Below, piece after piece: positions 4,554-48,068 of a DNA stretch of 64,000 nucleotides; the first letter of the stretch is position 1, and every line of letters starts with the position of its first letter. The stretch is from a virus. Location of the stretch: IMG/VR virus record IMGVR_UViG_3300037851_000215, positions 1 to 64,000 of that record. One strand, given 5' to 3'. Below the pieces are notes generated by a model. It was not told where the DNA came from, ran no database searches, and saw nothing but the letters and a program-made list of their open reading frames with translations. Both the position numbers and the translations under genes were made by a program.

Positions 4554-4554
4554 T

Positions 4555-5475: not shown

Positions 5476-5482
5476 AATAATT

Positions 5483-7157: not shown

Positions 7158-7158
7158 A

Positions 7159-8357: not shown

Positions 8358-8376
8358 CGAATTAAAAACTAATATT

Positions 8377-9054: not shown

Positions 9055-9067
9055 AAAAGAAATATGA
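9046..9067 (+). repeat. Dispersed motif copy CCCCTTTAAAAAAGAAATATGA (identical at 26235-26256)
   Basis: Exact 22-bp match; both copies sit at gene junctions and end in a start codon. Confidence 0.85.
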
Positions 9068-29256: not shown

Positions 29257-32200
29257 TTATCCTCTAAATAGAATGTAGTATTTATTAAATTTATCAATTC
29301 GTTGTAGTTGCTGAACCTTATTTAAAATCGGCACTAGTTTTATAGCATTAACTTTAAGTTTACTATCTTTAGCATATATACCGCTTTGATAAATTCTTTG
29401 TTCATCACTAACGAATGGATAACTCACTAAATTAGCAAAAGTTTTATATATATCAATAGCTGCACTCTGAACAGCAGCAGGTGATTTTAAAATCTTTTGT
29501 CCTTCATTAATAAGTCCAAATGGAGTATAAAACATTAATTCACTAAGTAGTCTATCTACCTGATATACAGTAAAATCATAACCATAATAATTTTCATCAT
29601 CATCATCATCTGGTTTAAGTGATTTAAGAACAAATCCAGCAGCAAGAACAGCACATAGATAAACCATATCTAATAATGCTCTTCTAACATTACCTTGTTC
29701 AAAATCATCTAATGTATTCCAATATAATCTAATATTAGTAGTAAAATGACTAAAATCAGATAATAATCTAGAAATCATATTCCTAAATTCAATTTCTTTA
29801 CCGTTTTCGTCATATCTATTTCTACCTGATGTACCTTTAAGAAATTGAAATAAACTAACATAACTACCTTTATCCCATTCATCTCTACTTTCAGTCCAAT
29901 AACTACTACCAAATTTACTACCAAATCTTTTATTCCAACCAGGACGCATAAACTTCTTAAATTGCATAATCATTTTACCCATAGCTCTCCTACCAAGAAT
30001 ATTACTATCTTCTCTATTGTAGATACCTTGTTCTTTTTGAACTACTTTAAGTACAATAACTTTAAATGCATCTATTTCATGTTCATCAAGTTTAACATCA
30101 CTTTTAAGTTCAGCAATACCATCCTGATTTAAAATAAATGCATCAATAAATCTAGGATATTTATTAAATTCTTCAACTGCTGTACTATCAAGTTTCTTAC
30201 GTGCCTCAATAAATGCATTTTGTTGATTTAAGGGGAGTGACAGAATAAAATCTCTAAGATAATCTTTTTTAGTTTCTTTAAATTCTTCGTCTCTAAAACG
30301 ATTACTTATATAATTATTTAGACGTTCTTTTTGTATATCAGATAATATTTCATTTAATGCTTGTCTATAATTATTATATTTATATTTAGCTAATGAAACA
30401 ATTTTACCATTTATAATACGATGTTGATTAAGCATAGCAAATAATGTAGTATTTTGTAGATAATGTTCACCAATATCATTCATAAAATACATACTATTTG
30501 TACTTAATAAATCTTTCTTTAACATTCCGCTAGTATAATCTTTTTCATTAGTATTTTGAGTTATATCAAAATATTTAATTAAAGCATTAGTTAATGTACC
30601 TGATTTTAATTTACCTAGTGTATTAATCATATCAGGAATAGCTGCAATATACATTTTATCTGCTTTAGTTAAATCGGCATTATTGAAATACCACCCAGCA
30701 ACAGATTCAAGTTGATTTTGTATTTTACCAAATACAATGTTATTTACACCAGCAGTAATATTAAACCACATATTTTTAGCAGAAGAATATTTAATCATAA
30801 TTTTAGCTATTTTGGTAAAAGTACCTTCATCTATATCAAAATTACCATAATAAATAGCTTCAATCCATTCTGCTAAATGTTTTTCTAAATTAGTACCTTG
30901 ACCCTTTTTAGTACCAATTACTGTTTTATCTAATGTTCTACCTGCTAATTTATTTTTTAATAATTCATTTTTACTATTTCGTTTATTAAAATCCATTTGA
31001 CGTAATCTATGTAATGAAGCATCTATATCAAATTTCATACCCATTTTAGCTTTATATATATTAGCTTCTCGTATAAAATTAGAAAATACTTCATATAGAT
31101 TATAGTTAATACGTTTAGCATTTAATTCAATATTTTCAGCACGTATTTTTTTATTTTTATCACGAACTTCTGCTAATGAATTAAAACTACCTCTACCAGC
31201 TTGTCTTATATCATTTAATACATCTTTTTCATAATCTTCTAGTGTTTCATTAAATCGTCTATCTCTAAACTTAATTTCTTCCTCACGTCCTAAAAATTGA
31301 ACCATTGGAATACCAAGTATATAAACAAGTTCATCATTCATACCGACAAATGAATCACTTTTTTTATTTGCAGCATGACTTTCATACCATGCTTCAAGTT
31401 TTTCACTGATAGACATATTCTCTTTATCAAAAGCAGACATAGTAGGAATAAATCCATCATTCAATATAGTTTTTCTACCAAAGTAATCAGTATATTTACT
31501 AATTATTTCAGTAAGTTTACTATAAATAGGATCATCTTTAATAGCTTTCCATTCAGGATTTATATATTTATCAGAAGGAGTTTTAAACATACTATCTCCC
31601 ATTCTAACATATGTTTTATCTCCTTTCTTAATGAAATTACGCTTTTTCCATTCGTTAAATTCATATTCAATTAATTCTTCTTGTTTTTGACTTATAACTT
31701 TTTGAACTTCTTCATCAGAAACAGCAGTAATTTCATTATCCCTAAACCATGCAAGAGCACCATTTATATAACTAGGTGTACCTTTACCGTAAGTTTTAGT
31801 TAAATATCTAAATCTGTTAGCTTTATCAGTATAATATTGTTCCCAATTATATTTTTGAACTAGTTTACCTGTACGTTTACCATTTTTAATTTCAAGATAT
31901 TTAATAAAATCGGCTTCAGTAATAGCAGTTAAAGGTTTACCTAATTTAGCAATAAGTAAATTTTCAAATTCAACTATATCTACATTACCTTCTCTTTTAC
32001 CTTTATTCATAGCTATACTGAATTTTTTTACTAAATTAGCTACAAATGCATTGTTAGTATCAGATAATGCATCTAACCATAGTTGAACGTAACTTTCATC
32101 ATCAGCTACTTCAAATATCTTACGTAAACCATCTAATATTTCAGGATTACTTGTATAATTTAATAATTCAGCTTCATAATAACTTTCTAATAATTTATTA

Positions 32201-35200
32201 AATTTATTATTAGCATTATCTATTTTAGTACTTAAGTTTTGTAGTTCTTTAATAAGATTATTAATTATACGTTCTTCTTCAATAAAATTATCTCCATCTA
32301 CAGATGTAAGTTCTTTAATATGAACCCACCCCTTTAAAAAAGAAAGTGCCTTTGACATAAAACCAGTAAATTCTTTTCTCTTAATAGGATCATTTATTAT
32401 ATCAGTCATATTAGCATTTTCATACTCATCTAACCGTATAAGTAAACCACCTTTAAATTTATTATCTGGTTTAGAAAGTAATACATTACTTGCATATTGT
32501 AATGTTGCAGTAAGAGCAGTAGCAAAATTAGCAAGTCCTATTTCTGTAATTTCTCTTTCTAATCCTAATCCTTTAAGCATATCAAATAATTCTTTAGCTT
32601 GTTTATTAGCTGTATTAATTCTTATAAGATTAGGAAGATTACCATATATTCTCTTAATAAGTTGATCTGCTGTATTAATTGCATTATTAACTGATTGAAC
32701 AGGAGAAGAAGTATAAGAAGAAAATTTAATGGAAAGTTGAGGATTATCTGGATATAATTCATTTAATATTTCAGCTAATGCTCTTGCTTGATTTATATTA
32801 CTAGTTGCAAATTTATCAGTAAGTACTTTATTTCTAGCATTAATACTTAGTTCACGAATTAATTCAGGATTTTGTTTAGCCCATTCTCTCCAAGCATTAA
32901 GATATGCATTCCATTGTTGTTCTCTAGTAATATTACCTAATGCTGGTTTACCTTTACCTTCCTTAATACTTAAATATCCTTTTACACTTACTTGATAATA
33001 TTCTTCAATAGACATTTTATGAGTAAGTGTACTTAACTGTCCAGTTGTATCATGTAATTGTTCTAATTGTGCACCTGGATTTAAAATAGCATAAAATGCA
33101 CTAAATCTTTTATCTCCTGCACTTGATACTTCATATGATTTAGTAGAATATCTTGACCATGTATAATGAGTTCCTTTAGTATTTATATCTATTTCTTCTT
33201 CTATTCCACTAGCATTATCATTAGCAACTGCATTATCTAACAATTTGTCAATAGTACCAATGTATTTATATTCAAATTGCTGTAAATCATTAGCAGCATC
33301 TAAATGATTGTCATGAATATAAGATATATCCCAACCTTCTTTTGCACTCCATTCTTTTCTAGCAGCAAGTGTACTTAAATCAATCTTATGTGGAGTTCTA
33401 GTAATTTGTATATATTCACTAGTACCTTGTAATCTAACAAATTGACCTATTTTAAGTTTTTCCCATTTTTTAGCTTCATTACCGTGTCTAGTAGTAGCAG
33501 TTCTATGACCGGCTCTAACTAAATCTAATGTAGTAGTGTATTCTTTAAGTTCGTCTCTAAACTTACCATCTTTAATACTCATATTCATAGCAAGATCGTT
33601 AGGATATACATTTTCACTAATTATATCTTTTTCACGCATCTTACTAATTAATTCCCTATATATTTCATCAGATGCTATAACAGTACCATCTGGTAATTGA
33701 TTATTATTTGGAAATATACTTTTAGATTCAACTTCATTTTCATTTAATTTAGGAACAGGATAATAATAATATGTACCAGTTATTTGATCATTTTCATCAA
33801 TATTAACATAGTCAATTACTTGTTTAAAAACAATCCATTCTACTTTATCTTTTTCTCTAATTTGAAGTTTAATGAATTTGGCTTTACGTACATTATTCCA
33901 TGCTCTACTTGTATTTATATCATTCCATTTATTAGCAGGAATAGATATTATTCCATTGTTATTTGGTCTAAATAAAGGTAATTGTATATTTACTTCATCT
34001 CCTTGAAAATCACGAATTTTTGTAAATTGTGCTTCTTTAATTACACCACCATCTGGAACAAGTAAATTATTTCTCCAATTAGTACGCAATATCATATCAA
34101 AATAATCAATTCCAAATAATGAAGCAATTAATTCATTTATTTCATTTTCTTTAGCTAATGTAAGTTTATTTGCAGTAGCTATTCTAAGTTTACTTTCTAA
34201 ATGACTACTTAAATTAATTCCTTTTTCATTATCTGTACCTTCAATAAATGCTTCTGTACTATTTGAAAAAATACTAACAGGAAGTAATTTACTATATGAA
34301 TTAAAACCAAATGTAAAACCAGATGTTAAATATTCGTATTTAACTAAATTTCTAGCAAGTACTCTTTCATATATATCATCACTATACCATAATGTAGTAA
34401 ACGACTCAGTCATAGCATTTGGAATATCATTAGGTATTAAATTAATTAAATGATATCCATTTCTTTCTATATCTGTAATTAGTAATTTAGTATCTAAATA
34501 ATTTAAAATATGATTACTATTATAATTACGTTGATCTAATAATAATTTAATTTGATTAGCTGCACTAAGTTCTTCAAATGCACTTATATTAGTTAAATCT
34601 CTAGTATTTACTTTTAAATTTACATCAGTATTAATACCAAGAATTCTATGTTTTTCTGTAGTATTCATAGTATTTAACCAAGGTAAATCTTTAATAGCAG
34701 CAGTAGTTAGATATTTATTAATTCTATTACTTAACTGTTTATCATATTTAACTTGATTAATATAATTAAATATTTCAGATTTGATATATTTTACTACATC
34801 TGTTTCACTTAGAAAATAATTACTAAATGCTTTAAGACTTAATAAATTAGAAAATGTTAAAAATTGTTCTAGAATAGGATAAACACTTTCTTTATTTATT
34901 CCGAAATATTTAGGATAAATAGCTACTGCTGCATTAGTTGTACCAACATCTAATAGACCACGTTCTGCAAATCTATTTATACTATATTCTAGTGAATTGG
35001 TAGTAGTAAATGTAGGTCCAGCACCAATACTATCAGTATTAAAAATATTTACTGCATCTGTAATTGTTTGTGCATAATGTTTATATACTTTAAATGTTTC
35101 AAGTAATTGTAATTGATAACGTATGTGTTGTTCTAATTGTTCTAATCTAGCTTTATCAGCATTATCGCTTTTTAATATTGCATCTATTTCTTCTGCTGTA

Positions 35201-38200
35201 GTTGTATTTAAATTATCGAACAATCTATTAAATTCTATATTTATAGGTGTGTTATTTTTATATCCTAATATACCATATAAATAAGATTGTGCTTCATCAC
35301 TATATGGAATAAATATATTTTTACCTTTACTAATTTCATTATCCCAAGATTGTACAGATTTACCTGTACGTTTATTTATAAGTTTATATAAAATAGTTTG
35401 ATATTTAGTTTTAATAATACTTATTTCTCTACCACGTTGAATAGTATGTAAATTATCAAAAAAGAATTCACTTAATTCACGTACAATAGGTTGATTAATT
35501 AATGTAGTAGATACATCATAAGTAGAACCAATACTAACTAATAATTTCCAAATAGGAAGAGTATATTCATTAACATTATTAGGCAATGGTTTCCTACCTG
35601 CATCCAATACGTTAGCTGTAATTTGTGCAGAATATGTATCTATATGTTTACCTAAAACGTTAACAAAAGTATTAGCAGGATTATTAGTTAAATATCGATG
35701 TGTTACAATTGCATATTCTTTATTATTACGTGTCTCAAATCTAACATCCTGTTTGTAGTTTTTAATTAATTCTTTTTTATCTATTTCATTAGTAATTTCA
35801 TATTCAATAATAGGTAATGTATCTAAAACAGTACCAATAAATGGACTATTTCTATCAATATTATTTGCTAAAGTAATTCTAGCAATTTGAGCAATAGCAT
35901 TAAACCTATCAATAGAAATAGTAGTTCCTTTTAGATTAACACTTTGTTGTGATTTATCTCTATATTCTTGCTGACCAGCGAATGTAAGAATATTACTATT
36001 TTTACTAAATGGAAATAATACTTTATTTATTTTACTATTTATTTTTTGAATATCATCAAAACTAGAAGTAAAAATAGTTTCTAAAAAATGTGCTGGATTA
36101 GTGAGAATAGAATAATATATATCTACAATCTGATTTTCTCTAGCACGTTTAGTATTTTGTGCTGAAATACTCCAATTTTCAATTATAGCTTTAACTTTAT
36201 TTTTCAAAGCTATATATTCAGGTGTGCTTTTATAATTTATAAATGCTTCTCCGAAATCAGATTGCGTTTTAGCAAACAATTCTTCATGTAAATCAGTAAG
36301 ATTATAAAGTAAAATTCGTTTGTTTTTACCTTTTGATTTAGTAAGTTTAATTTCAATATCACGAATTTTATTTACTACTTGTGTTAATCTAGCATCATTT
36401 TGAATATAATTATTTAATTCAGTATTTTGTTCTTTATATTGTTTTATTAAATTATTGTAATCTGTTAATATAGAAATAATAGTACTTACATTATGTTCTT
36501 GCGATAATACGTGAATTAAATCTTCTTTACTGTCTAATATTGCAGTTACTCTATTATTTAAATCATTTTCTGTAGTACCTGTTATATATTCAATAGTTGA
36601 TATTTTATCAGATTTAACACCATCTATAGTTTCATATTTACGTTGTAAATTATACAACATACTGTATACAGTATCCATATCAAAGTCAGAACCTGTTTGA
36701 GTAATAAATTCATCAGGTAATACTATAGCAGGACTGTTACTATCTGGTAAAAAACCAACTACTTTAAAAACATACATACTATATTTAGCTTCAGTAGGAA
36801 TACGATAACCTATCATAGTCCTTACTTTATCTGGTATAGTATTAATATCAACTAGTTCACCCTCTTTATAAAAATATTTACTCCATCTAGGAAGTAATAC
36901 TTCTGCTTCAATTATTTTTACACCATTTTCATCAAATGTTATATTTGATCGTAATTTAAGATCATTGCGTGAAGTAATTTCATTATGCCAATTTATTCCA
37001 GTAGTATTTTCAAGTTCAGATTGTTTTACTCCTTTCTTTTTATTCATAAATACAGATGACATCTGAGCAGCATGAACTCCAGGAAATTTCTGATTTGTAA
37101 CACCGTTTGTAATAATACTTGTTAAAAGATTTTCAAATTTATTTACAAAAGGACTAAAGAAAATAGGAAGATTAGCATAACCATTATTACCTATATTTAA
37201 TGAATATACTACGTTTTTAGGTAAACCTCTATTTATTGCTTCTTTCTGTAATACTTCTAATATCTTTTCATATTCTATTTCACCTACAATGTTACCATTA
37301 TTATCAATACTAACATCAAATGGTAACATAGTCTTATTTGCACTATGCCATATATTATTATTAAGTAAATCAAAATATTGAGTTTTTAAATCTTTACCTA
37401 ATGTTTCAACACCATTTATATTATATTTAGTATTATCATTTATATTTAAAATAATTTTCTTTGCTATCTGTCGTCCTAATGTATTTACTTCTTCCAATAT
37501 ATGATCTGGAATTTCTAATTGCATATGAAGTCCTTTGTAATTATAAGGACGTTTACCTAAAGTAAGTTCATTAATAATATCGTTATCATCTAGTAATTTA
37601 CCTTTTTTATCTGTTACAGTACCTATATGTAATGAACCTACTTTTTCAGCACTTGCAAAATTAAGTTGTCCAATTCCAACCTGTTTCATTAATTTATTAA
37701 TAGTAGAAAGATCTAGATCTTTAATTAAATCAGGAGTTAATACTATTTCTGCATTTTTAATTTGAACAGGAACCATTTTCTGCAATTCATGTGAATATTC
37801 AAAATCATAAAAAAAATTCTTTTGAATAGCAGCAAATTTAGAAATTTCATCTCTATTTAAAGGTGCTTTATCTCTAACTTTGTCAATAATATCTTTATAT
37901 GAATCATATAAACCAAAACCTTTAATTCTATTTATAAATTCTTCAAAAGTTATTAAAGATACTGAGTCAGCACTATCATTTCTTAGATAAGGGGATGTTA
38001 TATTATATATCTTTAATTCTATAGCAGATAACTTAGGTATATTATTATCTATCTCTTCATCAGTGTATACTTTATTAAGTTTATTTATACGATATGTAGT
38101 AGTACCATCTGGATCTAATATCTGATGTGTCATACGTACTAATTCATTATATATTTTAGATTTTAAAACTACATCTGATACAGTACTAGCATAAAATACA

Positions 38201-41200
38201 CCAGGATTACTGTTAGAAAGACCATTAGCCAATACTTCACCAGCACGTTTGTTTAAGTCGGTTTGTGATATATAATCGGCAATACTACCATGAAATAATC
38301 TAGTTTGTTCTATATTAAATAGATATGTATTTAAAGCATATTCTAATATAAATGTATTATATGTTTTATTTTTTAATAATTTATTAAGATTATCACTATA
38401 AACTACATCTCTATTTTCATTGCGTAAATAACTATTACTAATATAATCATAATATATGCCTAATTTAGAAATAGCTGTATTAGTTTGTTGCTGAATAAAT
38501 CTAAGTACATAATTTTCTAATAAACTTTTAAAATTAGTACCATTCATATCACTAGATAGTGCAACAGCTAAACTAGGACTATTAAGTAAGTGTTCAGTAA
38601 ATGATAAACCATTTAATTTAAAATCATTAAAGGTAGTCATTTTACCTTTATTTATAACACTCATATTTTGTAATGAAAATACATTACCACTATTAGCTAA
38701 ATCAAGTTCTAATTCATTATTTTCATTTAGTTTAAATGATAAATAATTCTTATTTTGATTTTCATCTAATTTATAATGATAATATTTTTGAGTAGATGTA
38801 CTTACATCTGCAATATTAGATTTTAATTTAACTTTACCATCTTCTATTATAACACTACCATCTTCATTTAATTCAAATAGAATTTCTTTAGCAGTTTGCA
38901 TTGCAATCATTTCATCAATGACTACATTAAATAATGCTTTAAAAATAGGAGTATCTTTTATTTTATTTAATCTTTCTTCATTAGGTATATTAGCTGATAG
39001 AATACTATAAAAATTGTTATTTAATTCAATAATAGGTACTTCAAACAACATAGTATGTTTTCTATCAGATGGATTAAGTAAAGGCATTATAGCAGTTTCT
39101 TTACCTACTATTTCCTTTTTACTATTATATTTATATCTACCACCTGCAAGATAATAAACTAAACTTTTAAGTGTCCAATCAAATCTAGCTAAATCTGAAT
39201 ATTCAGTACCTTTATTATCATCACGATTTTTACTACCTTGATATACAAAATTCTTAAATATAGATAGATTATGTTTATTAATACTATTATATCCTAATGG
39301 TATTTTTTTACCTTTTTCTATAGTATAGTTTAATATACCACGACCTTGTTCAATTAAATTACTGTTATCTATACGATCCCCCCATAAAATAAGAGAATGC
39401 TGATTACTTGGAACAAGCGCATATTTAGAAAGAAAAGCAAATATAGATTCATCAGTACCATTACGTAGTTCTTCAAAGAAATTACTAATAAAGCTAGGAT
39501 TTCTAGGATCGAATATTAAATTTCCTTTTGTATTAATAGAACTATGATTAAAATGATCTATTCTAAGAAATTTAACTACATCAGCTAATTCACGTAATCT
39601 ACCAAATTGATTAAAAACTAATTTATTGTTTTTATTATAAAGTTCAATAAATCCATTAGCTTCTTTAGCAAATGGATCACTTTTAATATAAAGAAGTGGA
39701 TTTAATAGTTTATTTATTATATTATTACGATTAAGATTATATTGATGCATTATAGTATCAACATCTATCTCAATACCTATTTTATCAAATAACATAGATA
39801 ACTGTTCAGCAGTTTGATCAGTTATAACTGTAAAATTACGAGTTTGTACAAATAATGCTTTATATGCATCATTCCATTCTTTAATCCAAGTATCATTAAA
39901 TATATTGTTTTCAGCTCTACTTATAATAGTTCCAATCCATTTATTAGCAGTAACATATGAAAATGAATTTCTATTACCACTATCTAAATCGATCTCATTA
40001 CCTAAATAAGTAGTTCTATTTAAATCTATATATGAGTCAATAATAGCTTTATCATATTGAGTAAACCATGTATTAAGTAAATCTGGATCACTTTTAAGTT
40101 TTTGCCAAACTTGTAATAATGATTTACCTATTGGATGTTTACTATTAGATGCAAAATTAAATAGAATATCTAACATTTCTTGCTTATTTAAAGCAGTACT
40201 CATTAAATCTCTAATTTTACCATCTAATTCATTATAATTAAGATAGTTAGCAAACCCTGTTGGAGTTTCAATATTTGATTTAAATATATAATTACCTTGA
40301 TTATCTATAGTAATATTATTAGGATCAATCTCAGGAGTAGTATTAATTAAATTTTTAATTCTATCACTAACTGTTAAAATAGGATGTTGTGAAATAGCTT
40401 GATTTTCATCCCAACTTTTAGATAGATATTCTACTTCATCTTGATAATCATCTATTTCATGAATATTATATCCATTATTTTGAGAAAGTTGAACTTTAAA
40501 TAATTTCCAAAATGCATCATTATTTCTAACTTCATCACGAAGTTTAAATAATAATTCTTTTTGTGAATTAGAAAGTTGTCCTAATTCAGCCGCTTTACGA
40601 CCTTTTCTACCTATATTAGCAAGTATATCTTGACGTATTTTATTCTCAGCAATATCTTTTACTTTAAGATTTTTATATTCATTACTAATTTCAATAAAAG
40701 CAGCTGTCATTAAACTAATAACATTTCTTTCTTCTTCTTCAGAGAAATTAGAACCTGTTTGTTCAGTATTAAGTGTAGAAAGATAAGAAGAAAATTTAAT
40801 AGTTTGTAAATCACGTTCTTCATTAATTTCTACTTCCCACCAATCATTTTCATATTCATCAGTAATACGTTGTGCATTATATAGCTTTTTAAGAATATTA
40901 CCTATACGATTTTCATAAAATGCTTCAATAGGTTTGAGTTTTTCTATACCTTGTGATTTTAAGTCTTGTTTTTCTTTTATTTTATTTTCTAATATATATT
41001 TAACGTTTTCATTATATAATTCAAAAGCTTCATTTTTAATAGTGTTATATCTATTATCAAATTCATTTTTAGTTATTTCTAACCCAGATTTATAATATTT
41101 ATCACCTTTAACACTATGTGTTTTATAATAATGTTCTGTTAATCCATCTTCATTACTATCAAATTTATTAGGATTTTGTAAAGTTGGAAATTTATCAATA

Positions 41201-42489
41201 GTGGCCTTATCGTTTTGTAATAATTCAATTTCTTTATCAATTCTTCTTATCTCATCAGCAATAGTTCCATGTCCTTCAATCTTAGCAGCAGTTTCACCAG
41301 TAGGAAATACAACTTTTTTAAATTCACGTAAAGCACTATCTTGAACTATAGTTTTAATAAAGAAATTTATCCAATTACTTTCTTTATTAAGAAGTTGAAG
41401 AAATTGATTTTTAGATATATCTTGTTCAGTTAATACTGCATATTTATTAAAACTTTTAACAGCTTGTCCTGTATCAAAATATCTTCCTGCTTGTTCATTT
41501 GAAATAGGTTTTAATACAGAATGATATTTACTTGTACCGATAAAATTATCATCTTCATCATAATCATCAGTAATTTCTTGTTCAATTGTTTCTAAAAACC
41601 ATTTTTCTTCATTTGTTTTAATTAAACGATCTCCATCAGATTCTCTTAAATCAAATATTTCTTCAGCTACTATTCCTGTTAGTATATCAATATCTCTAGT
41701 TTTCTGAAATTCAGATTGAACTTCAAGAATACGTCTAATATTAATAGTTTGTTGTACTCTTTCAGTATTTAATTCAAATTCTTTATCATATTCTTCTTTA
41801 GTAATTTCTTTTCCATCTTTAGTAAATTTTGATGTATTATTAACAACATCTATATCTATATTAATATTAGATATTGTTTCAGATCTAATATCACTTCTAA
41901 ACCATCCTATGCTATTAGTAGGAATACCTCTTCCACCAGGATCTTGTGTAAAAGCAGCATGAGATTGCATAATAGGAACTATTTCAGGTGTTCTAATATC
42001 ATATTCACGATAATTAGTTCCACCTGGAGCAGTTAAATTTTCATAATCAGCAGAAGGTAAGCTACCAACATGAGCAATTAATCCACCAGCACCATCATAT
42101 TCTCTATCACTATAATCAAATCGTTTTCCTAAATTAACTTCAATAGAATAAGAAAGTGAACTAGATAAATTTAAAATAAGTTCATCTAAATTAACATCCT
42201 TAGTATTACTTTGTAGATTAAATAATTGTTTATAACTACTAAATCCACCTATTTCATTTAATGTTTTCTCAATAGTCCAATTATTTTTAGCACCTTTACT
42301 AAATATTTCTTTAGCTCTATCAGAACTAAGTAAATCAATTACTTTTAATCCTGCATTAATTGTATATTGATCTAAAGCAGGAGTACTAGTAAAAGATGAA
42401 AATTTATTCTGTGATTGTTGTTTTAAATAACTTTTTAATTCATTCATTGAATTAAAACGCATTCCCTTATATGTAGGTACACAAGCCAT
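29257..42489 (-). CDS. Giant virion-packaged RNA polymerase polyprotein (crAss-type vRNAP plus accessory domains and a C-terminal helical ejection domain)
   Basis: GYRIPT motif and catalytic GSDFDMD (36673-36687, D1935); DxxKR; MAC- N-terminus; position in the virion block. Confidence 0.9.
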   Translation of the reverse strand: MACVPTYKGMRFNSMNELKSYLKQQSQNKFSSFTSTPALDQYTINAGLKVIDLLSSDRAKEIFSKGAKNNWTIEKTLNEIGGFSSYKQLFNLQSNTKDVNLDELILNLSSSLSYSIEVNLGKRFDYSDREYDGAGGLIAHVGSLPSADYENLTAPGGTNYREYDIRTPEIVPIMQSHAAFTQDPGGRGIPTNSIGWFRSDIRSETISNINIDIDVVNNTSKFTKDGKEITKEEYDKEFELNTERVQQTINIRRILEVQSEFQKTRDIDILTGIVAEEIFDLRESDGDRLIKTNEEKWFLETIEQEITDDYDEDDNFIGTSKYHSVLKPISNEQAGRYFDTGQAVKSFNKYAVLTEQDISKNQFLQLLNKESNWINFFIKTIVQDSALREFKKVVFPTGETAAKIEGHGTIADEIRRIDKEIELLQNDKATIDKFPTLQNPNKFDSNEDGLTEHYYKTHSVKGDKYYKSGLEITKNEFDNRYNTIKNEAFELYNENVKYILENKIKEKQDLKSQGIEKLKPIEAFYENRIGNILKKLYNAQRITDEYENDWWEVEINEERDLQTIKFSSYLSTLNTEQTGSNFSEEEERNVISLMTAAFIEISNEYKNLKVKDIAENKIRQDILANIGRKGRKAAELGQLSNSQKELLFKLRDEVRNNDAFWKLFKVQLSQNNGYNIHEIDDYQDEVEYLSKSWDENQAISQHPILTVSDRIKNLINTTPEIDPNNITIDNQGNYIFKSNIETPTGFANYLNYNELDGKIRDLMSTALNKQEMLDILFNFASNSKHPIGKSLLQVWQKLKSDPDLLNTWFTQYDKAIIDSYIDLNRTTYLGNEIDLDSGNRNSFSYVTANKWIGTIISRAENNIFNDTWIKEWNDAYKALFVQTRNFTVITDQTAEQLSMLFDKIGIEIDVDTIMHQYNLNRNNIINKLLNPLLYIKSDPFAKEANGFIELYNKNNKLVFNQFGRLRELADVVKFLRIDHFNHSSINTKGNLIFDPRNPSFISNFFEELRNGTDESIFAFLSKYALVPSNQHSLILWGDRIDNSNLIEQGRGILNYTIEKGKKIPLGYNSINKHNLSIFKNFVYQGSKNRDDNKGTEYSDLARFDWTLKSLVYYLAGGRYKYNSKKEIVGKETAIMPLLNPSDRKHTMLFEVPIIELNNNFYSILSANIPNEERLNKIKDTPIFKALFNVVIDEMIAMQTAKEILFELNEDGSVIIEDGKVKLKSNIADVSTSTQKYYHYKLDENQNKNYLSFKLNENNELELDLANSGNVFSLQNMSVINKGKMTTFNDFKLNGLSFTEHLLNSPSLAVALSSDMNGTNFKSLLENYVLRFIQQQTNTAISKLGIYYDYISNSYLRNENRDVVYSDNLNKLLKNKTYNTFILEYALNTYLFNIEQTRLFHGSIADYISQTDLNKRAGEVLANGLSNSNPGVFYASTVSDVVLKSKIYNELVRMTHQILDPDGTTTYRINKLNKVYTDEEIDNNIPKLSAIELKIYNITSPYLRNDSADSVSLITFEEFINRIKGFGLYDSYKDIIDKVRDKAPLNRDEISKFAAIQKNFFYDFEYSHELQKMVPVQIKNAEIVLTPDLIKDLDLSTINKLMKQVGIGQLNFASAEKVGSLHIGTVTDKKGKLLDDNDIINELTLGKRPYNYKGLHMQLEIPDHILEEVNTLGRQIAKKIILNINDNTKYNINGVETLGKDLKTQYFDLLNNNIWHSANKTMLPFDVSIDNNGNIVGEIEYEKILEVLQKEAINRGLPKNVVYSLNIGNNGYANLPIFFSPFVNKFENLLTSIITNGVTNQKFPGVHAAQMSSVFMNKKKGVKQSELENTTGINWHNEITSRNDLKLRSNITFDENGVKIIEAEVLLPRWSKYFYKEGELVDINTIPDKVRTMIGYRIPTEAKYSMYVFKVVGFLPDSNSPAIVLPDEFITQTGSDFDMDTVYSMLYNLQRKYETIDGVKSDKISTIEYITGTTENDLNNRVTAILDSKEDLIHVLSQEHNVSTIISILTDYNNLIKQYKEQNTELNNYIQNDARLTQVVNKIRDIEIKLTKSKGKNKRILLYNLTDLHEELFAKTQSDFGEAFINYKSTPEYIALKNKVKAIIENWSISAQNTKRARENQIVDIYYSILTNPAHFLETIFTSSFDDIQKINSKINKVLFPFSKNSNILTFAGQQEYRDKSQQSVNLKGTTISIDRFNAIAQIARITLANNIDRNSPFIGTVLDTLPIIEYEITNEIDKKELIKNYKQDVRFETRNNKEYAIVTHRYLTNNPANTFVNVLGKHIDTYSAQITANVLDAGRKPLPNNVNEYTLPIWKLLVSIGSTYDVSTTLINQPIVRELSEFFFDNLHTIQRGREISIIKTKYQTILYKLINKRTGKSVQSWDNEISKGKNIFIPYSDEAQSYLYGILGYKNNTPINIEFNRLFDNLNTTTAEEIDAILKSDNADKARLEQLEQHIRYQLQLLETFKVYKHYAQTITDAVNIFNTDSIGAGPTFTTTNSLEYSINRFAERGLLDVGTTNAAVAIYPKYFGINKESVYPILEQFLTFSNLLSLKAFSNYFLSETDVVKYIKSEIFNYINQVKYDKQLSNRINKYLTTAAIKDLPWLNTMNTTEKHRILGINTDVNLKVNTRDLTNISAFEELSAANQIKLLLDQRNYNSNHILNYLDTKLLITDIERNGYHLINLIPNDIPNAMTESFTTLWYSDDIYERVLARNLVKYEYLTSGFTFGFNSYSKLLPVSIFSNSTEAFIEGTDNEKGINLSSHLESKLRIATANKLTLAKENEINELIASLFGIDYFDMILRTNWRNNLLVPDGGVIKEAQFTKIRDFQGDEVNIQLPLFRPNNNGIISIPANKWNDINTSRAWNNVRKAKFIKLQIREKDKVEWIVFKQVIDYVNIDENDQITGTYYYYPVPKLNENEVESKSIFPNNNQLPDGTVIASDEIYRELISKMREKDIISENVYPNDLAMNMSIKDGKFRDELKEYTTTLDLVRAGHRTATTRHGNEAKKWEKLKIGQFVRLQGTSEYIQITRTPHKIDLSTLAARKEWSAKEGWDISYIHDNHLDAANDLQQFEYKYIGTIDKLLDNAVANDNASGIEEEIDINTKGTHYTWSRYSTKSYEVSSAGDKRFSAFYAILNPGAQLEQLHDTTGQLSTLTHKMSIEEYYQVSVKGYLSIKEGKGKPALGNITREQQWNAYLNAWREWAKQNPELIRELSINARNKVLTDKFATSNINQARALAEILNELYPDNPQLSIKFSSYTSSPVQSVNNAINTADQLIKRIYGNLPNLIRINTANKQAKELFDMLKGLGLEREITEIGLANFATALTATLQYASNVLLSKPDNKFKGGLLIRLDEYENANMTDIINDPIKRKEFTGFMSKALSFLKGWVHIKELTSVDGDNFIEEERIINNLIKELQNLSTKIDNANNKFNKLLESYYEAELLNYTSNPEILDGLRKIFEVADDESYVQLWLDALSDTNNAFVANLVKKFSIAMNKGKREGNVDIVEFENLLIAKLGKPLTAITEADFIKYLEIKNGKRTGKLVQKYNWEQYYTDKANRFRYLTKTYGKGTPSYINGALAWFRDNEITAVSDEEVQKVISQKQEELIEYEFNEWKKRNFIKKGDKTYVRMGDSMFKTPSDKYINPEWKAIKDDPIYSKLTEIISKYTDYFGRKTILNDGFIPTMSAFDKENMSISEKLEAWYESHAANKKSDSFVGMNDELVYILGIPMVQFLGREEEIKFRDRRFNETLEDYEKDVLNDIRQAGRGSFNSLAEVRDKNKKIRAENIELNAKRINYNLYEVFSNFIREANIYKAKMGMKFDIDASLHRLRQMDFNKRNSKNELLKNKLAGRTLDKTVIGTKKGQGTNLEKHLAEWIEAIYYGNFDIDEGTFTKIAKIMIKYSSAKNMWFNITAGVNNIVFGKIQNQLESVAGWYFNNADLTKADKMYIAAIPDMINTLGKLKSGTLTNALIKYFDITQNTNEKDYTSGMLKKDLLSTNSMYFMNDIGEHYLQNTTLFAMLNQHRIINGKIVSLAKYKYNNYRQALNEILSDIQKERLNNYISNRFRDEEFKETKKDYLRDFILSLPLNQQNAFIEARKKLDSTAVEEFNKYPRFIDAFILNQDGIAELKSDVKLDEHEIDAFKVIVLKVVQKEQGIYNREDSNILGRRAMGKMIMQFKKFMRPGWNKRFGSKFGSSYWTESRDEWDKGSYVSLFQFLKGTSGRNRYDENGKEIEFRNMISRLLSDFSHFTTNIRLYWNTLDDFEQGNVRRALLDMVYLCAVLAAGFVLKSLKPDDDDDENYYGYDFTVYQVDRLLSELMFYTPFGLINEGQKILKSPAAVQSAAIDIYKTFANLVSYPFVSDEQRIYQSGIYAKDSKLKVNAIKLVPILNKVQQLQRIDKFNKYYILFRG
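32329..32349 (+). repeat. Dispersed motif copy CCCCTTTAAAAAAGAAAGTGC (identical at 53419-53439)
   Basis: Exact 21-bp match 21 kb apart, inside two different genes. Confidence 0.85.
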
Positions 42490-42501: not shown

Positions 42502-42684
42502 TTAAAGTTGAGTATAAATATTAGATAATTCTTTATGTAAATCGTTTATTCGTTCTTGTAATACTAATTCAAGTGCATCTTCTTCATTTTTACCTTGTTC
42601 AATTAATTTATTTACATCAATTATTAACAATGTTTTATCATCATTAGATAATGTACTACTATTAATTTTATCTATGACAGACAT
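42502..42684 (-). CDS. Small helical hypothetical protein
   Basis: ORF packed between neighbours. Confidence 0.6.
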   Translation of the reverse strand: MSVIDKINSSTLSNDDKTLLIIDVNKLIEQGKNEEDALELVLQERINDLHKELSNIYTQL

Positions 42685-42905
42685 ATCAAAAATGATTTAA
42701 TTACCATCAATAATTCTTGTTCATCTTTTAATCCTATAAGTTTTAATGTAACAGTTTCTTCAGAACCATAATAAGGTATTTTATGTTTTCTAATTGTTCG
42801 TCTAGAATCAGCTATAATTAAATCTACAGTCCAATATCCATTTGTAGCAACAGAAGTTTTTTCTGCACTCCAATATCCTTCTGTTGCTATTTCTAATGTG
42901 TTCAT
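42672..42905 (-). CDS. Small protein with a duplicated ATxGYW motif
   Basis: IATEGYW / VATNGYW; C-terminal DEQELLMVI. Confidence 0.6.
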   Translation of the reverse strand: MNTLEIATEGYWSAEKTSVATNGYWTVDLIIADSRRTIRKHKIPYYGSEETVTLKLIGLKDEQELLMVIKSFLICLS

Positions 42906-43453
42906 AGTCTAGTAACTACAGTAGATGTAGCATCACTTTCTATATCTAATGTAATATTATCAGTAGTTCGTTTACCTGTAACTTTATCAACGGTCATAGG
43001 ATTACCTGATACTAGTCCTTGTAGTTCATGAAGTTCACTTAATTTAGTAGCTTGTTCTGGTGTAAGTCCACCACCACCACCATCAGATGAAAAAGATATT
43101 GCTTGTACTGGCTGTTGATAATTAATTCTAACTACCCAACTACCTACTGTATTAACAAATGGATCTCCACCACCTTCAACTAGTAAAATACCGTCTATTA
43201 TATTTAAGGTATGATTTGCTTCTTGTGGTCGTATTTTCCAATCATTTATTAAAAATGCATATATAGGTATTTTAGTTCCAGTAGATGGATCGATATCATT
43301 TCCACCTACTTGTGTTAAAGCAAGTGGATATTTAGAATTATCACTAGTTAAAAACCAATCAACCCATCTACTCCAAAGATCTCTAACACTTACTGTAGTA
43401 GTACCAGAAGTAAGAGTTATAATCTTAGTTGAACCATCTATCGAATATGCCAT
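42902..43453 (-). CDS. Putative virion structural/appendage protein
   Basis: Beta-rich; DLWSRWVDW motif; poly-Gly linker then helix; co-transcribed with the fibre-like genes. Confidence 0.5.
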   Translation of the reverse strand: MAYSIDGSTKIITLTSGTTTVSVRDLWSRWVDWFLTSDNSKYPLALTQVGGNDIDPSTGTKIPIYAFLINDWKIRPQEANHTLNIIDGILLVEGGGDPFVNTVGSWVVRINYQQPVQAISFSSDGGGGGLTPEQATKLSELHELQGLVSGNPMTVDKVTGKRTTDNITLDIESDATSTVVTRL

Positions 43454-43455
43454 AA

Positions 43456-45129
43456 TTAAACAATATATGCTCTATCTGTTTCTGCCGTAAGTGTTATAAT
43501 AATACCTTTACTTTGACTTATAACACCAGTTGCTACTACTGGTTTAGCACTACCTGCATTACCAGCAATAACTGTTACAGGAGCATCTTCTCCTTCTGAA
43601 CCAGCTCCTCTTTGATCATTATTAGTATAATCATATGTAAAGCTAATAGATCCTGCGGTTATAGTACCTACAATTGGATTACCATCTTTATCATTTACGG
43701 TTATAGCATTACCTGTACCATAATCATAACCTAAATTACTACCAGCATCATCATTAGTAAAGTACATTCTATAATAACCTGTACCACCTGAAGTAAGAGC
43801 AGCATTAAAATTAAGTGTACCAGCAGATGCATATGGATATTCTCTAGTAGCAGCACTATTATCATAAAATACAATACTGTTCAAATCAGCATCTTGTATG
43901 CCTTGTATTAATACACCACTACCACCACCAGCTGGGTTTGTAGGTATGTAATAACCACATTTAAGTGAAGGACCAACAAAGTTTAAAAGAAGAGATGCAG
44001 TTGTACCAATAACACTTGTACCACCAGATACAGCATTTATATTACCTGTCTGACGTAGTTGATATTGAATTTTAGTATATATTTCTTTAAGGGTGGCTGT
44101 AACAGGAGTTGCTCTTTGACAAGTAAAAGATAAATTAGAACCTGATGAAATTGTACCAGTAACTGTTATAGTAGTAGCAGTATTACTAACAATAGGAAAT
44201 GAAACACCTGCGTCAGTACCTTCGTAAATAGTAAGAACACCGCCATTGTATGCACCAACTGTCATACCACCTGTTGCAGATGTTAATATAGAACCAGCAC
44301 CAGGAGCTGAACCATCTATACCAGAATGTGTACCTACATCTATAACTATACCAAAGTTTCTACCTGTTGCACTTTCTATTGTACGAGTAAATGAACCAGA
44401 GAAATATTTAATATTTATTTCAGTATATGGTGATATAGTAGCTACATTAGCATCGGTATTTGTAATATCCAAATCAGCACCAACTGCAATAGGTAATGCA
44501 ACTTTAAAAGCACCTGTACTAGTTTCACCTACATCTGTCAGAATAGCATCATCATATAAATAACTTTCTTCTCTACAAAACAATTTAAAATAAGTTCTAT
44601 TATCAAAATTACCATTAGATGCATCACCATATACCTGTATTGCTTCATTTGGAGCATCATCATATGTAAAATTATATGCTGAACCACCAGAAGCTCTTTG
44701 ATAATAAAATTGTGCTCCACTAGGAAAACCAGATGCAAGAGCAACCATACCTACATATTGTCTATTTAATACTCCAGCAACAGAATATTCACTCCATCCA
44801 GCATCTCGTATCATTTGTCTACAAACATCATCATTTGGTTTCCATCCATTATATGTACCACCAGGATCTTGTCCAAATATATACTGACCTGATCTAGCAT
44901 CAAGTACGTTCATTGGAAAAGGATAAGGTTGATATGTAGCAGTAGTCCATAGATCAATAAATTTTGCCCATAATGCATTACCAGTAACACCATCTTTTGC
45001 TACTAGACTACCATACGGAGCAAGATCAAATGTCTTACTAGAAACATCTAACCATATATTTCCATCTACACCTAAATTTCCAGCTGACGAACTAACGATC
45101 AGATCATCTGGATCAATAATTTTAGCCAT
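43456..45129 (-). CDS. Putative virion fibre/appendage protein
   Basis: G/S/T/A-rich, all-beta character; C-terminal DRAY. Confidence 0.5.
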   Translation of the reverse strand: MAKIIDPDDLIVSSSAGNLGVDGNIWLDVSSKTFDLAPYGSLVAKDGVTGNALWAKFIDLWTTATYQPYPFPMNVLDARSGQYIFGQDPGGTYNGWKPNDDVCRQMIRDAGWSEYSVAGVLNRQYVGMVALASGFPSGAQFYYQRASGGSAYNFTYDDAPNEAIQVYGDASNGNFDNRTYFKLFCREESYLYDDAILTDVGETSTGAFKVALPIAVGADLDITNTDANVATISPYTEINIKYFSGSFTRTIESATGRNFGIVIDVGTHSGIDGSAPGAGSILTSATGGMTVGAYNGGVLTIYEGTDAGVSFPIVSNTATTITVTGTISSGSNLSFTCQRATPVTATLKEIYTKIQYQLRQTGNINAVSGGTSVIGTTASLLLNFVGPSLKCGYYIPTNPAGGGSGVLIQGIQDADLNSIVFYDNSAATREYPYASAGTLNFNAALTSGGTGYYRMYFTNDDAGSNLGYDYGTGNAITVNDKDGNPIVGTITAGSISFTYDYTNNDQRGAGSEGEDAPVTVIAGNAGSAKPVVATGVISQSKGIIITLTAETDRAYIV

Positions 45130-45153
45130 ATTTCTTTTATGTTTATATTGTTA

Positions 45154-47427
45154 TTAATTTATATAATATCTATCTACAACTTGTGCTATTGGAATACTTG
45201 TATTACTAGCAGTTAAAAGATAATTTCTAATATAGTAAGGATTGTATCCTGCTTTGAATATTCCTATATCTATATAAGTAGATGCTGCATATTGATAATT
45301 ATATTCATATGTAGTACCACTATTACTTTGGGTATTTTCTAATTCAGTAGTAGTTCCTGCTTCTAATATAGATATATCACTACCATCGACAAGTCCAGTT
45401 AGTGTTAAAATAACTGGATTTTCAACAGTAACTGTAGCACCAGCTGTTCTTATTGATGGAGTAGATCCACCACTAATTGTTATTGTCATTGAACCAGAAG
45501 CAATATTAATATATATTGCTTCATTACCAGTTGATCCATCTGTTGCGGCATATCCACTAAAATCAAGACCTGTTAAAACTATATCTGCTGCTGTACCACC
45601 AATTTCCATAGCATGACCAGTACCAGCAGAAATAAAATTACTATTTGTAATATTTTCAGCATCAGCTGGAGAAGCAATTGTTATTTTAGAATTATCAAAC
45701 ATACAATCATCTAAAACAGCTGAATTTAAAGTAAACATAGGACAATCTATAAAAGACATAGAGCTTAATTCAACTGAACTACGTAATGTGACTGTAGCAT
45801 TAACAACCGATGTACCAGCAAAATCTAAATCTGCACTTGCACTATGACTTGCATTAAATCTCCAATAGTAAGGGCTTTCTGATGTAAATACACAATTTGT
45901 AAAAGCAAGACTATCGCCAGATAAACCATAAAATTCATAACCCATATGATTATTATCTACATGGAAATCAAGATTAGTTGTCTCATTAGCTTTTTTAGGA
46001 TACTGAAATACGTTTAGATTACAGCCTATAAAAGTTGCATCTGCACCGCCAAACTTAATCCTTGTCCATAACATACCAGTAGAACCAGCTACTTGAATAA
46101 GTGGTATATCAGAACTTCCTTTATTAATTGCAGTTACAAGATCATCAAAATTAAGCGGGTTAGATGATGTTCCACCAAGTATCTGCGATTCATTAAGTAA
46201 CCATAATTGAGAAAAATCTAATTGTGTAGCACCATAATATCCTTGTGCTGCAAAATAAATATCATTTATAGCATTGTAAGCTATTGTACCACTAGTTGCA
46301 TAACTAGTATCACTGCTCCCATTAACCTGTATTGCGAAGTTCTGCATATCCCAAGGTTTAGTAGTCTTTGCAAGCTGAGCACCAATAGTCCAAAATTTAT
46401 AATCATTATCTGCATCTGCTATACCAATAAGAACTCCACCAGTAGAAGATATACCAGAATCAAGATAATCTCTAGGACTTGTATATTGCCACATACCAAA
46501 TAACACACCACTACCAGCAGTAAAATCTTCTGCTGAGGTAAATGTTAATTCCTGTCCATATAAAACAGTTGTAGAAGAAGTAGCATTAAATCTTAATACA
46601 CCATGAAAAGGATTATATCCAACGTCAGCACTATTTGTTGTATATGCAACATAAGTTAAAGTTTTTGCTCCTACAGTAGTTATATCAAGTGGAGCTACTG
46701 TTTTTAATGCTCCTCTATTAACAGTAGAAACGTTATTATTTAAAACAGATAAAAGAGTTGCAGGAAGATTACTATTACTTACATAAGGTGAAACGGCTGT
46801 ATTATTACCATCATCTTTTATTGTAATAACTAATGCTCTTGTATCATCTGCTATTGTTCCAGCAAAGAATGACGGAACATATATAGCACCTGCTGTTTTT
46901 TTAAAGTCATACCCAACAACTATTGAGTTAGCTCCTGTATCACCACCAAATAATTGTATTATTCCAGGTAAAGCAAAAGTACCATATACAGCATCACCAC
47001 CAAGACAGTGTATAACTAATTCATTGTTTTGAGTAGTTGTAGCAGACATACCTGTAAATGGAAGAGAACTATCATCAGAACCAGTTGCAGCTGCTTGATC
47101 TATCGCATCAGAACCATCAGTTGTAGAACCATCCCAATACTGTCCACGTATAGAAATTACTACACCTATACAAGTTTCACTTGTTAATGTAAAAGTAACT
47201 GTTTCAGAACTTGATGCAGCTCGTTTAGTATAAATACCAGTAGCATGTCCTGCTCCTAGAATAGTAGTAGCAGCAGACCATCCAGCAGGAGTTGTAAAAG
47301 CACTAGCTGTATCTTTATTTAAACAAGCTACAAGTAAATCACCTGCTTCATGAACAGGCATATTCATTACCATATTTGCTGTAGCAACAGTATAAATAGT
47401 AGTAGCGTGATCTATAATTCTTGCCAT
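45154..47427 (-). CDS. Putative spike/adhesin (N-terminal beta-sandwich, beta-helix-like C-half)
   Basis: P....GDLLV...PAGW motif; FTNCVF/LDDCMF beta-helix-like repeats; C-terminal DRYY. Confidence 0.55.
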   Translation of the reverse strand: MARIIDHATTIYTVATANMVMNMPVHEAGDLLVACLNKDTASAFTTPAGWSAATTILGAGHATGIYTKRAASSSETVTFTLTSETCIGVVISIRGQYWDGSTTDGSDAIDQAAATGSDDSSLPFTGMSATTTQNNELVIHCLGGDAVYGTFALPGIIQLFGGDTGANSIVVGYDFKKTAGAIYVPSFFAGTIADDTRALVITIKDDGNNTAVSPYVSNSNLPATLLSVLNNNVSTVNRGALKTVAPLDITTVGAKTLTYVAYTTNSADVGYNPFHGVLRFNATSSTTVLYGQELTFTSAEDFTAGSGVLFGMWQYTSPRDYLDSGISSTGGVLIGIADADNDYKFWTIGAQLAKTTKPWDMQNFAIQVNGSSDTSYATSGTIAYNAINDIYFAAQGYYGATQLDFSQLWLLNESQILGGTSSNPLNFDDLVTAINKGSSDIPLIQVAGSTGMLWTRIKFGGADATFIGCNLNVFQYPKKANETTNLDFHVDNNHMGYEFYGLSGDSLAFTNCVFTSESPYYWRFNASHSASADLDFAGTSVVNATVTLRSSVELSSMSFIDCPMFTLNSAVLDDCMFDNSKITIASPADAENITNSNFISAGTGHAMEIGGTAADIVLTGLDFSGYAATDGSTGNEAIYINIASGSMTITISGGSTPSIRTAGATVTVENPVILTLTGLVDGSDISILEAGTTTELENTQSNSGTTYEYNYQYAASTYIDIGIFKAGYNPYYIRNYLLTASNTSIPIAQVVDRYYIN

Positions 47428-47429
47428 AA

Positions 47430-48065
47430 TTAATCTGTTAAATAACTTATACCACCATAATGACCAAGTTTAATATTTCTATTGATCCAAATATCTCCAC
47501 CTATCTTTCTCCATCTCATACCAAAAGCAGCATCTTCATGTACAAGTAATTTATTTTCATTATCTATATAAGGTGAATAATAATCATGTATAAGTATTCT
47601 ATTAGGCCCATGTATTAAAGTAGTAACTTTATTAAGTTTTTCAAATACTGATTTTTTAATTAAATTAAAACCAGCACCAACATAATTTACTTTAGTTATT
47701 GGTTCATCTGTTGTTTCTTCACATGGATTAACACAAAGTTCAACTTTTTGCCATTTTTTTAATCTATAAGGAGCAGCTGCAAATTCAACATCCATATCTA
47801 ATAATACTAAAACATCTTTTGGACGAAATTGTATATCTGCATCAATACAAAGTAAATGAGTATAACCTAAATCTAAAAAACTAGCAGCAATATGATTTCT
47901 TGTTGATGGAATAAATGATTCATTAGATGGAGTTATTATATCACAAGCTATATTTTTTTTAGTTAACAGTTTAGATAAAGAAAACAGAGAACTAGCTGTA
48001 TAACTATGCATTTGTGCTCCATAACAAGGAACAGCTACTAATATACCTATTTTAGAATAATCCAT
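47430..48065 (-). CDS. GT-A fold glycosyltransferase
   Basis: VAVPCY, RNHIA..FL, IDAD (DxD), GAGFNLIKKSVF, ED..F, GH.G. Confidence 0.85.
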   Translation of the reverse strand: MDYSKIGILVAVPCYGAQMHSYTASSLFSLSKLLTKKNIACDIITPSNESFIPSTRNHIAASFLDLGYTHLLCIDADIQFRPKDVLVLLDMDVEFAAAPYRLKKWQKVELCVNPCEETTDEPITKVNYVGAGFNLIKKSVFEKLNKVTTLIHGPNRILIHDYYSPYIDNENKLLVHEDAAFGMRWRKIGGDIWINRNIKLGHYGGISYLTD

Positions 48066-48068
48066 ATC

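Follow-up and report, generated by a model that had tools for sequence, protein, structure and literature searches.

Giant proteins associated with a virion RNA polymerase (RNAP) are among the defining and broadly conserved proteins of the Crassvirales, which in the human gut are the most abundant phages, and in p-crAssphage such a protein, gp44, is annotated as an 'RNAP catalytic subunit fused to unknown RNAP subunit'. Whether and where the giants are processed is a question raised both in the structure paper on gp66 of phage phi14:2 and in the survey of polyvalent proteins. The fused 'huge polyprotein' of crAss-like phages has been conjectured to be cleaved, possibly with involvement of the zincin-like domain of gp65 (Drobysheva et al., bioRxiv 10.1101/2020.03.07.982082), and zincin-like peptidases have been proposed to process polyvalent proteins (Iyer et al. 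2017, PMC5512222). The atlas of crAss001 reports cargo proteins and makes no mention of cleavage or proteolysis, and literature searches returned no described site motif for these proteins. In this study, we describe a short peptide motif which recurs between the modules of a 4410-amino acid (aa) protein, encoded by an open reading frame (ORF) at 29257..42489 in the first 64 kb (the window) of the 94,218-bp phage record IMGVR_UViG_3300037851_000215 of IMG/VR (G+C content 27%). Coordinates refer to the window, and all features located in it below lie on the minus strand.

A motif at the module borders of a virion RNAP fusion

By homology, the 4410-aa protein is a crAss-like virion RNAP fusion. 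In tblastn searches it matched crAss002, p-crAssphage gp44 and other crAss-like RNAP genes at 25–27% identity (E down to 6e-98), while BLAST aligned residues 860–1660 of phi14:2 gp66 with its residues 1381–2342 (gp66 860–1378 against 1381–1952 at an E-value of 2e-27) and residues 938–1406 of phi14:2 gp65 with its residues 3862–4394. The catalytic DFDMD occupies aa 1935–1939, in which D1935, F1936, D1937 and D1939 are invariant across seven giants. Because of the matches to crAss002 and p-crAssphage gp44, together with the gp65 and gp66 alignments, the fusion of an RNAP to a gp65-type C-terminal region is to be regarded as already known in other crAss-like phages. A first-pass annotation, made from the DNA sequence alone, had set the protein against a crAss-type virion RNAP of about half its size with separately encoded neighbours, and this comparison left aside the fused RNAPs of p-crAssphage (gp44) and crAss002. 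Pfam searches with whole proteins and with five sub-domains gave no match except ART-PolyVal in a relative, and searches of PDB sequences gave none.

Within this protein, K-F-S-S-[FY]-x-S-[ST] is common to three sites, all of which the first-pass annotation had located correctly: NKFSSFTST (motif 1, aa 28–36, 42382..42408, with NKFSSF at aa 28–33, 42391–42408), IKFSSYLST (motif 2, aa 564–572, 40774..40800, with IKFSSY at aa 564–569, 40783–40800) and IKFSSYTSS (motif 3, aa 3254–3262, 32704..32730, with IKFSSY at aa 3254–3259, 32713–32730). FSS is followed by F or Y in four out of four cases in the 4410-aa protein as against none out of ten in the other ORFs of an 87-ORF set. The fourth of these cases, GGFSSY (aa 81–86), was absent from the first-pass list; its position reads SVPKEQ or GVPKQQ in relatives, i.e. 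it is not conserved, and it is probably due to chance. The naive, composition-based expectation for KFSS[FY] is 0.007, a value that ignores the look-elsewhere effect and overstates the significance, as a repeated 6-mer arises in ~50% of shuffles. For this reason a corrected test was applied, in which any three 8-residue windows were counted if each pair was identical at 6 or more of the 8 positions. The KFSS trio is the sole qualifying triple in the real protein, and any such triple at all appeared in 1 of 150 shuffles. A reading of the sites as chance matches in a large, compositionally biased protein can point to the repeated 6-mers and triple 4-mers that are common in shuffles of the 4410-aa protein; however, it is effectively refuted by the conservation of the motif in relatives and its coincidence with junctions (see below), in addition to the triple-window test and the parallel motif at the same junctions of a distant relative.

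The module borders were assessed using BLAST breakpoints, which were defined independently of the motif, in comparisons that included the relatives P0003–P0008 from a database search (giants of 3714–6247 aa, 41–49% identity). All three motifs lie within ~10 residues of points at which homology to other giants starts or stops, so that the borders which the first-pass annotation had perceived at the motifs are real. At motif 1, homology to P0004 begins at residue 32, after 1915 unrelated residues, and P0004 reads DKSIVSFEGN there; the same junction reads KLAVITSS in the giant P0046. At motif 2, homology begins at residue 558 (P0003), 564 (P0005), 549 (P0006) or 560 (P0009), and the match to G001_2073, a 2073-aa protein of another phage, ends at residue 566. 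At motif 3, the alignments to P0004–P0008 stop at residues 3084–3107 and restart at residues 3239–3258.

The modules delimited in this way begin with an N-terminal leader (aa 1–27, 42409..42489), which starts MAC..YKG..F.S..EL and is of a type with Cys3 that is referred to here as type A. Beyond motif 1 lies an N-module (aa ~37–560, 40810..42381), which aligns to residues 314–758 of G001_2073, to P0004 and to P0046, and for which no Pfam, PHROG or usable Atlas match was obtained. This region had earlier been taken for an unknown domain of ~530 aa; it indeed has no family assignment, but it is better described as a mobile module, as it occurs in a different protein of another phage. In that phage (G001, IMGVR_UViG_3300022930_000001; L015, 118.7 kb) the N-module is found within the 2073-aa protein (3174–9395 of that genome, minus strand), which is encoded after the RNAP gene and in which the N-module is fused to a C-module-like end. 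The N-module has thus moved between proteins.

Motif 2 is followed by the virion RNAP module (aa ~573–2930, 33700..40773), recognised by its gp66/crAss-like RNAP homology and the DFDMD residues, and by a small conserved domain (aa ~2940–3103, 33181..33672), which has no Pfam match and closes the conserved block ahead of a cassette slot. This slot holds a swappable cassette (aa 3109–3246, 32752..33165) with a phrog_9995 domain (E 5e-31). The phrog_9995 domain forms a stand-alone protein of ~120 aa in phiKZ-like and N4-like phages, the cassette being ~40% identical to small proteins of phiKZ-like jumbo phages (PHIKZ082.1) and of N4-like Achromobacter and Delftia phages, while in P0004–P0008 the slot carries unrelated inserts of 105–336 aa instead. 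No NADAR family was matched in Pfam at E-values up to 1. Motif 3 precedes a helical C-module (aa 3263–4410, 29260..32703), which is equivalent to the C-terminal part of phi14:2 gp65 and which 1679 representative proteins match at E-values up to 0.001. Near the C-terminus of this module, a hydrophobic run, MVYLCAVLAAGFVL (aa 4275–4288, 29626–29667), is followed by KPDDDDDEN; the run is kept in relatives and in G001_2073, and may serve to insert an ejection protein into the membrane. In an AlphaFold2 (AF2) model of aa 3090–3700, motif 3 is a coil with a predicted local distance difference test score (pLDDT) below 50, directly ahead of the first confident helix of the C-module. The model, which was built on a shallow alignment of 13 sequences and in which the phrog_9995 part is poorly modelled, lends weak support to a position of motif 3 in an exposed linker.

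Conservation of the motif and exchange of cassettes

Both major junctions in the relatives read K-[FPA]-[SV]-[SA]-[YF]-[ST]-S-[STEK], the sequence upstream of them being unalignable, and K3255, Y3259, S3261 and S3262 are invariant in a seven-sequence alignment of giants. Conservation, on which the first-pass annotation had made its proposal depend, was thus found at both major junctions of seven giants at 41–49% identity. Furthermore, extra copies of the motif inside the variable regions of relatives bracket cassettes. In P0003, the slot ahead of the RNAP contains KPIVSFTSET, then ART-PolyVal (PF18760, E 1e-13) and then VKSISYSST, while in P0006 the slot ahead of the C-module contains NIKPSSYTSSI, then an ART-like domain and then GIKPSSYTSST; two directly adjoining copies in P0007 have the appearance of an empty slot. 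As motif copies flank swappable cassettes, the suggestion in the first-pass annotation that the motif may act as a domain-swap junction fits these observations. At least six unrelated sequences occur downstream of the motif (the N-module, the RNAP module, the C-module and three different cassettes), which argues against a motif that does no more than open one particular fold. A relaxed form of the pattern gave 22 matches in 578,173 residues (189 related proteins) against 2.65 in shuffles, and 18 of 20 among the matches listed fall at mapped junctions or cassette borders. The arrangement has the feature that characterises polyvalent proteins, i.e. unrelated effector-type domains on one phage polypeptide that differ between relatives. 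Judged by its conservation and position, the motif is a real, conserved marker between the modules of a polyvalent virion protein.

A parallel variant was found in P0046 (26–34% identity) when 97 giants were scanned for repeated triples without using the motif. This protein has four copies of KLA[TV]ITS[SN]. Two of them flank the N-module, a third follows a further cassette of ~200 aa and the fourth precedes the C-module; in the copy behind the N-module (KLATITSS) the K is in register with K565. Motif copies from the same protein resemble each other more closely than copies from different proteins (5.94 versus 4.07 of 8, permutation p <5e-5), a signal that rests on one lineage (p = 0.14 without P0046). 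Such likeness is consistent with a single recognising factor that co-evolves with its sites, and also with DNA-level homogenisation of the copies.

The latter possibility forms part of an explanation in which the motif is a recombination or gene-conversion joint, its DNA providing microhomology for the turnover of cassettes and the peptide being a tolerated linker. In agreement with this, cassettes are flanked by direct repeats (KLATITSS occurs twice in P0046, and NIKPSSYTSSI and GIKPSSYTSST form such a pair in P0006), and the two IKFSSY sites of the window are, as had been noted in the first pass, identical over 18 bp. These shared bases, ATTAAATTTTCTTCTTAT, are present in two copies only in the 94-kb genome, which are the two IKFSSY sites, and the use of the same codons for the same residues at both would be expected in ~4% of cases as calculated from the codon usage of the gene. 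Additionally, 8 of the 10 Ser codons of window sites 1–3 are TCT, as against 29% of the Ser codons of the gene. However, K, Y and S are invariant at 41–49% identity while the upstream sequences are unrelated, which points to selection on the peptide. Moreover, the two sites of the closest relative are no more alike in their DNA than the shared residues require, and the polymerase would be lost if sites 2 and 3 of one gene recombined with each other. A DNA-level joint is, on balance, improbable. The TCT-rich codons form a pyrimidine run, TTTTCTTCTTAT, and the same tendency is seen in the relative G002. Frameshifting or slippage at this T-rich DNA was considered and dropped, because no canonical X XXY YYZ heptamer is formed there and, at 27% GC, the stops in the other frames are nothing unusual.

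The motif also extends to the protein encoded upstream, W_1988 (1988 aa, 48562..54528), which is the counterpart of the N-terminal third of the ~6000-aa giants found in relatives. Since aa 15–1874 of W_1988 match the first ~1880 aa of P0003–P0007 (41–47% identity), W_1988 is fused to the polymerase protein as one ORF of ~6000 aa in these five relatives, and the natural fission point is junction 1. The tail of W_1988 carries the copy KLAVFSSN (aa 1904–1911, 48796..48819), which fits the relaxed motif and the P0046 variant KLAVITSS. The first-pass annotation had remarked on a VFSS just after the zincin domain (aa 1907–1910, 48799–48810), and this proved to be a genuine copy in a different register, K-L-A-V-F-S-S-N. 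It sits in a tail that is disordered in the AF2 model, 27 aa past the end of the zincin-like domain, and the distance from the end of this domain to the first motif copy is ~30–42 aa in the fused relatives P0003–P0007 and in P0046. In the window, the two halves that form one ORF in the five relatives are split by an inserted block (42502..48560) which consists of ORFs of 163, 211, 757, 557 and 183 aa and two tiny ORFs, and which bears no similarity to the giants. The 211-aa ORF matches phrog_1574, and the 757-aa and 557-aa proteins begin alike (MARIID and MAKIID, respectively).

A candidate protease and the role of the motif

The zincin-like domain of W_1988 (aa 1671–1877, 48898..49518) contains HEILH at aa 1749–1753 (49270–49284). 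Its AF2 model (pLDDT 72–94) shows a helix followed by three strands and the HExxH helix (model residues 181–198), and in a fold search the whole-domain matches were zincins (anthrax LF, acel_2062 and PPEP-3), although weak ones with Z-scores of 4.1–4.9. No match was obtained for the domain in Pfam or among PDB sequences. An hhalign comparison placed the HExxH helix against the HEIMH region of phi14:2 gp65 (E 0.049, probability 1%), and the Atlas gave LPD23, in 18% of one cluster, as a lead. The best single fold match was the PhiM1 pre-infection ejectosome chain 8vb2_A (Z 6.1, 84 residues); it covers the helical part only, within the model of W_1988 aa 1753–1870, and its score is too weak to interpret. 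The HExxH motif reads HEIIH in P0046, P0043 and P0009 and HDxxH in the whole P0003–P0007 clade, while it is canonical in four other lineages. In the clade with HDxxH, either the general base has changed without harm or the activity has been lost. The invariant E251 and E252 of the model (aa 1810 and 1811) are candidates only for the third zinc ligand, while the spacing of 27–42 residues between the domain and the first motif copy would be what an enzyme acting in cis needs.

Head-protease families were searched for in the genome as alternatives. PF04586 (S78), PF00574 (ClpP) and PF01343 (S49) gave no match, with positive controls, whereas PF03420 (S77) gave no match in the genome or in its control, so that S77 is not excluded. 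Within the families searched, from which divergent members may escape, no peptidase-like candidate came to light besides the zincin-like domain.

The best-supported reading of the motif is that it marks a processing site, and we put the probability of this at roughly 0.5. On this reading the motif would be a peptide signal between modules, with the consensus K-[FPAL]-[SVA]-[STA]-[YFI]-[ST]-S-[STN]. The complete unit would comprise, in order, an N-terminal ejection-type protein ending in the zincin-like domain (here the separate W_1988), optional cassettes, the RNAP, further cassettes and the C-terminal helical module with its membrane-type hydrophobic segment. Most likely, one factor would recognise the motif at every junction, and this factor would most plausibly be a maturation protease. 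Among the observations that speak for processing, cassettes are bracketed by the motif, homology breakpoints coincide with it, natural fission occurs at junction 1, and the motif lies in predicted coil or in a disordered tail. If the cut fell before the aromatic residue of the motif, as would suit a zincin, the predicted products would be a 3.7-kDa leader and pieces of ~62, 309 and 134 kDa from the 508-kDa protein, and a 9-kDa tail released from W_1988 (224 kDa). Self-cleavage of the intein or Nup98 type was dropped as a mechanism, as the upstream domains are mutually unrelated and no invariant nucleophile stands beside the aromatic residue.

That the zincin-like domain is the cutting enzyme is a weaker claim than processing as such, and we advance it tentatively. 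If it cuts, its S1' pocket would suit the large hydrophobic residue that is invariant in the motif, and the scissile bond would then be at K-F-S-S/Y-T-S-S (the slash marking the cut). The most far-reaching version of this proposal, which we consider possible though somewhat doubtful, is a true polyprotein with plug-in slots. In such a system, a zincin-like protease of the same chain would cut co-evolving K-x-x-x/[YFI]-[ST]-S sites and so free the polymerase, the ejection module and interchangeable anti-defence enzymes, while separately encoded modules would carry the Cys-leader and the site as a removable packaging or anchoring signal.

Several points weigh against processing, or against the zincin-like domain as its agent. 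The support for cleavage comes from sequence and models and none of it is direct, while the zincin fold match is weak (Z of 4.9 at most for whole-domain matches) and comes with no Pfam or PDB sequence match. The catalytic Glu is replaced by Asp (HDxxH) in the five closest relatives and the motifs are nevertheless kept. The low pLDDT of motif 3 may reflect the shallow alignment of 13 sequences, and the within-protein likeness of the copies depends, as stated, on one lineage. At site 3 at least, the conserved stretch continues for ~15 residues beyond the K and enters the first helix, which would also suit a structural start element. The crAss002-like P0010 and P0076 carry a related F-T-S string in apparently continuous helical sequence. 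G001 yielded no repeated motif, nor did most other giants in the motif-free scan of 97, and hidden Markov models of the motif and of the start of the C-module did not reach the gut crAss-like giants. Finally, no processing accompanies the packaging of the virion RNAP of phage N4, which likewise has a zincin-like domain (Iyer et al. 2017, PMC5512222).

Some of these points would be accounted for by an uncleaved linker or docking element at the start of each module, a short and exposed peptide with one binding partner throughout, for instance the portal or barrel interior, a chaperone of packaging or an adjacent module. It could set the order in which the unfolded chain threads through the tail, and the protein would stay whole. 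The uncleaved ejection of the N4 virion RNAP is in keeping with such a role, as are the cargo proteins of crAss001, which are thought to cross the tail partly unfolded, and the run of conserved residues that leads from the K into the helix opening the C-module. A further argument comes from the C-module as a separate gene (~1250 aa). Stand-alone C-modules have either a leader of ~95 aa or a short leader like that of the window protein, followed by the motif and then the module, and thus the motif is kept internally, after ~95 aa in the former, although no upstream domain needs to be removed. This arrangement fits a removable leader and a structural or targeting role equally well. Conversely, tiny cassettes with a copy of their own on both sides are not readily explained by a linker, which also leaves unexplained the similar distance of the first copy from the peptidase-like domain. 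An uncleaved element is, in our estimation, unlikely, if still to be taken seriously beside processing.

The leaders themselves are of two types. Type A (~27 aa) reads MAC..Y.[FY].G..[FY]....E[LF], and type-A-like leaders are present in phi14:2 gp66, G001_2073, P0034, P0040 and P0041. Type B (~95 aa) reads MxxCPNKN...W..[LM]VETVG...AY.IY (leaders compared: P0029–P0041). A start of the form M-x(1-4)-C was found in 127 of 179 related proteins (P0010–P0180), the overall Cys content being 0.16%; phi14:2 gp65 starts MSC and gp66 MAC, and the 4410-aa protein has two Cys in total, of which Cys3 lies at 42481–42483. Proteins starting with a W_1988-like module are without the N-terminal Cys. Among the exceptions, P0012 and P0175 look mis-called and P0121 has the same leader after a short extension. 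Disulfide bonds occur in the tail of crAss001 virions, and an anchoring or chemical role of the N-terminal Cys is possible.

A Ser/Thr-rich peptide in exposed linkers might alternatively be a site of post-translational modification by phosphorylation or glycosylation. The invariant Ser residues in predicted coil would suit such a site; however, no kinase or dedicated modifying enzyme is tied to the motif, and fused relatives that lack the inserted block still keep it, which leaves this explanation a very small share of the probability.

Should the motif be a processing site, it would supply concrete residues at which to look for processing, namely F33, Y569 and Y3259, together with the 9-kDa tail of W_1988. 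As a marker, it offers a rule by which unannotated giants can be divided into their modules and new cassettes of injected effectors can be detected.

Comparison with known systems

The notion that such fusions are polyproteins cut by a zincin has already been published as a conjecture; what appears to be new is the site motif together with the slot-and-cassette rule and the parallel variant of a single distant relative. The phi14:2 proteins gp65, gp66 and gp67 share with the window protein the homologous RNAP core with DFDxD and the C-terminal part of gp65, and are likewise virion-type proteins. In phi14:2, however, the zincin-like domain is near the N-terminus of gp65, whereas here it is at the end of the upstream protein, and the window protein additionally has the N-module, the phrog_9995 cassette and the recurrent motif.

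Polyvalent proteins (PMC5512222) similarly combine many effector-type domains on one injected polypeptide, include ART-PolyVal, which is present in a relative of the window protein, and have been proposed to undergo processing by zincin-like peptidases; that survey defines domains and architectures, and its text, as far as searched, mentions no linker and gives no site motif, whereas the slots described here are delimited by a conserved peptide. Phage P1 DdrB and DarA provide a precedent for the trimming of packaged anti-defence proteins, DdrB being processed and having a C-terminal zincin-like domain. The N4 virion RNAP (gp50) is likewise a giant RNA polymerase that is packaged and ejected, with flanks needed for ejection and encapsidation and with a zincin-like domain; it differs in that it is reported to be packaged unprocessed, its polymerase is T7-like rather than of the two-barrel type, and we know of no punctuation motif in it. 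The internal proteins of T4 lose a short N-terminal targeting peptide through a dedicated prohead protease with an LxE-type site, from which the motif described here differs in sequence and in being internal to a multi-module chain.

The RNA-virus polyproteins that encode their own protease in cis differ in that the present case concerns a virion protein of a DNA phage, for which cleavage is proposed from sequence and the protease is a candidate. They nevertheless resemble it in having a short consensus at every border, which is lineage-specific and uniform within the protein.

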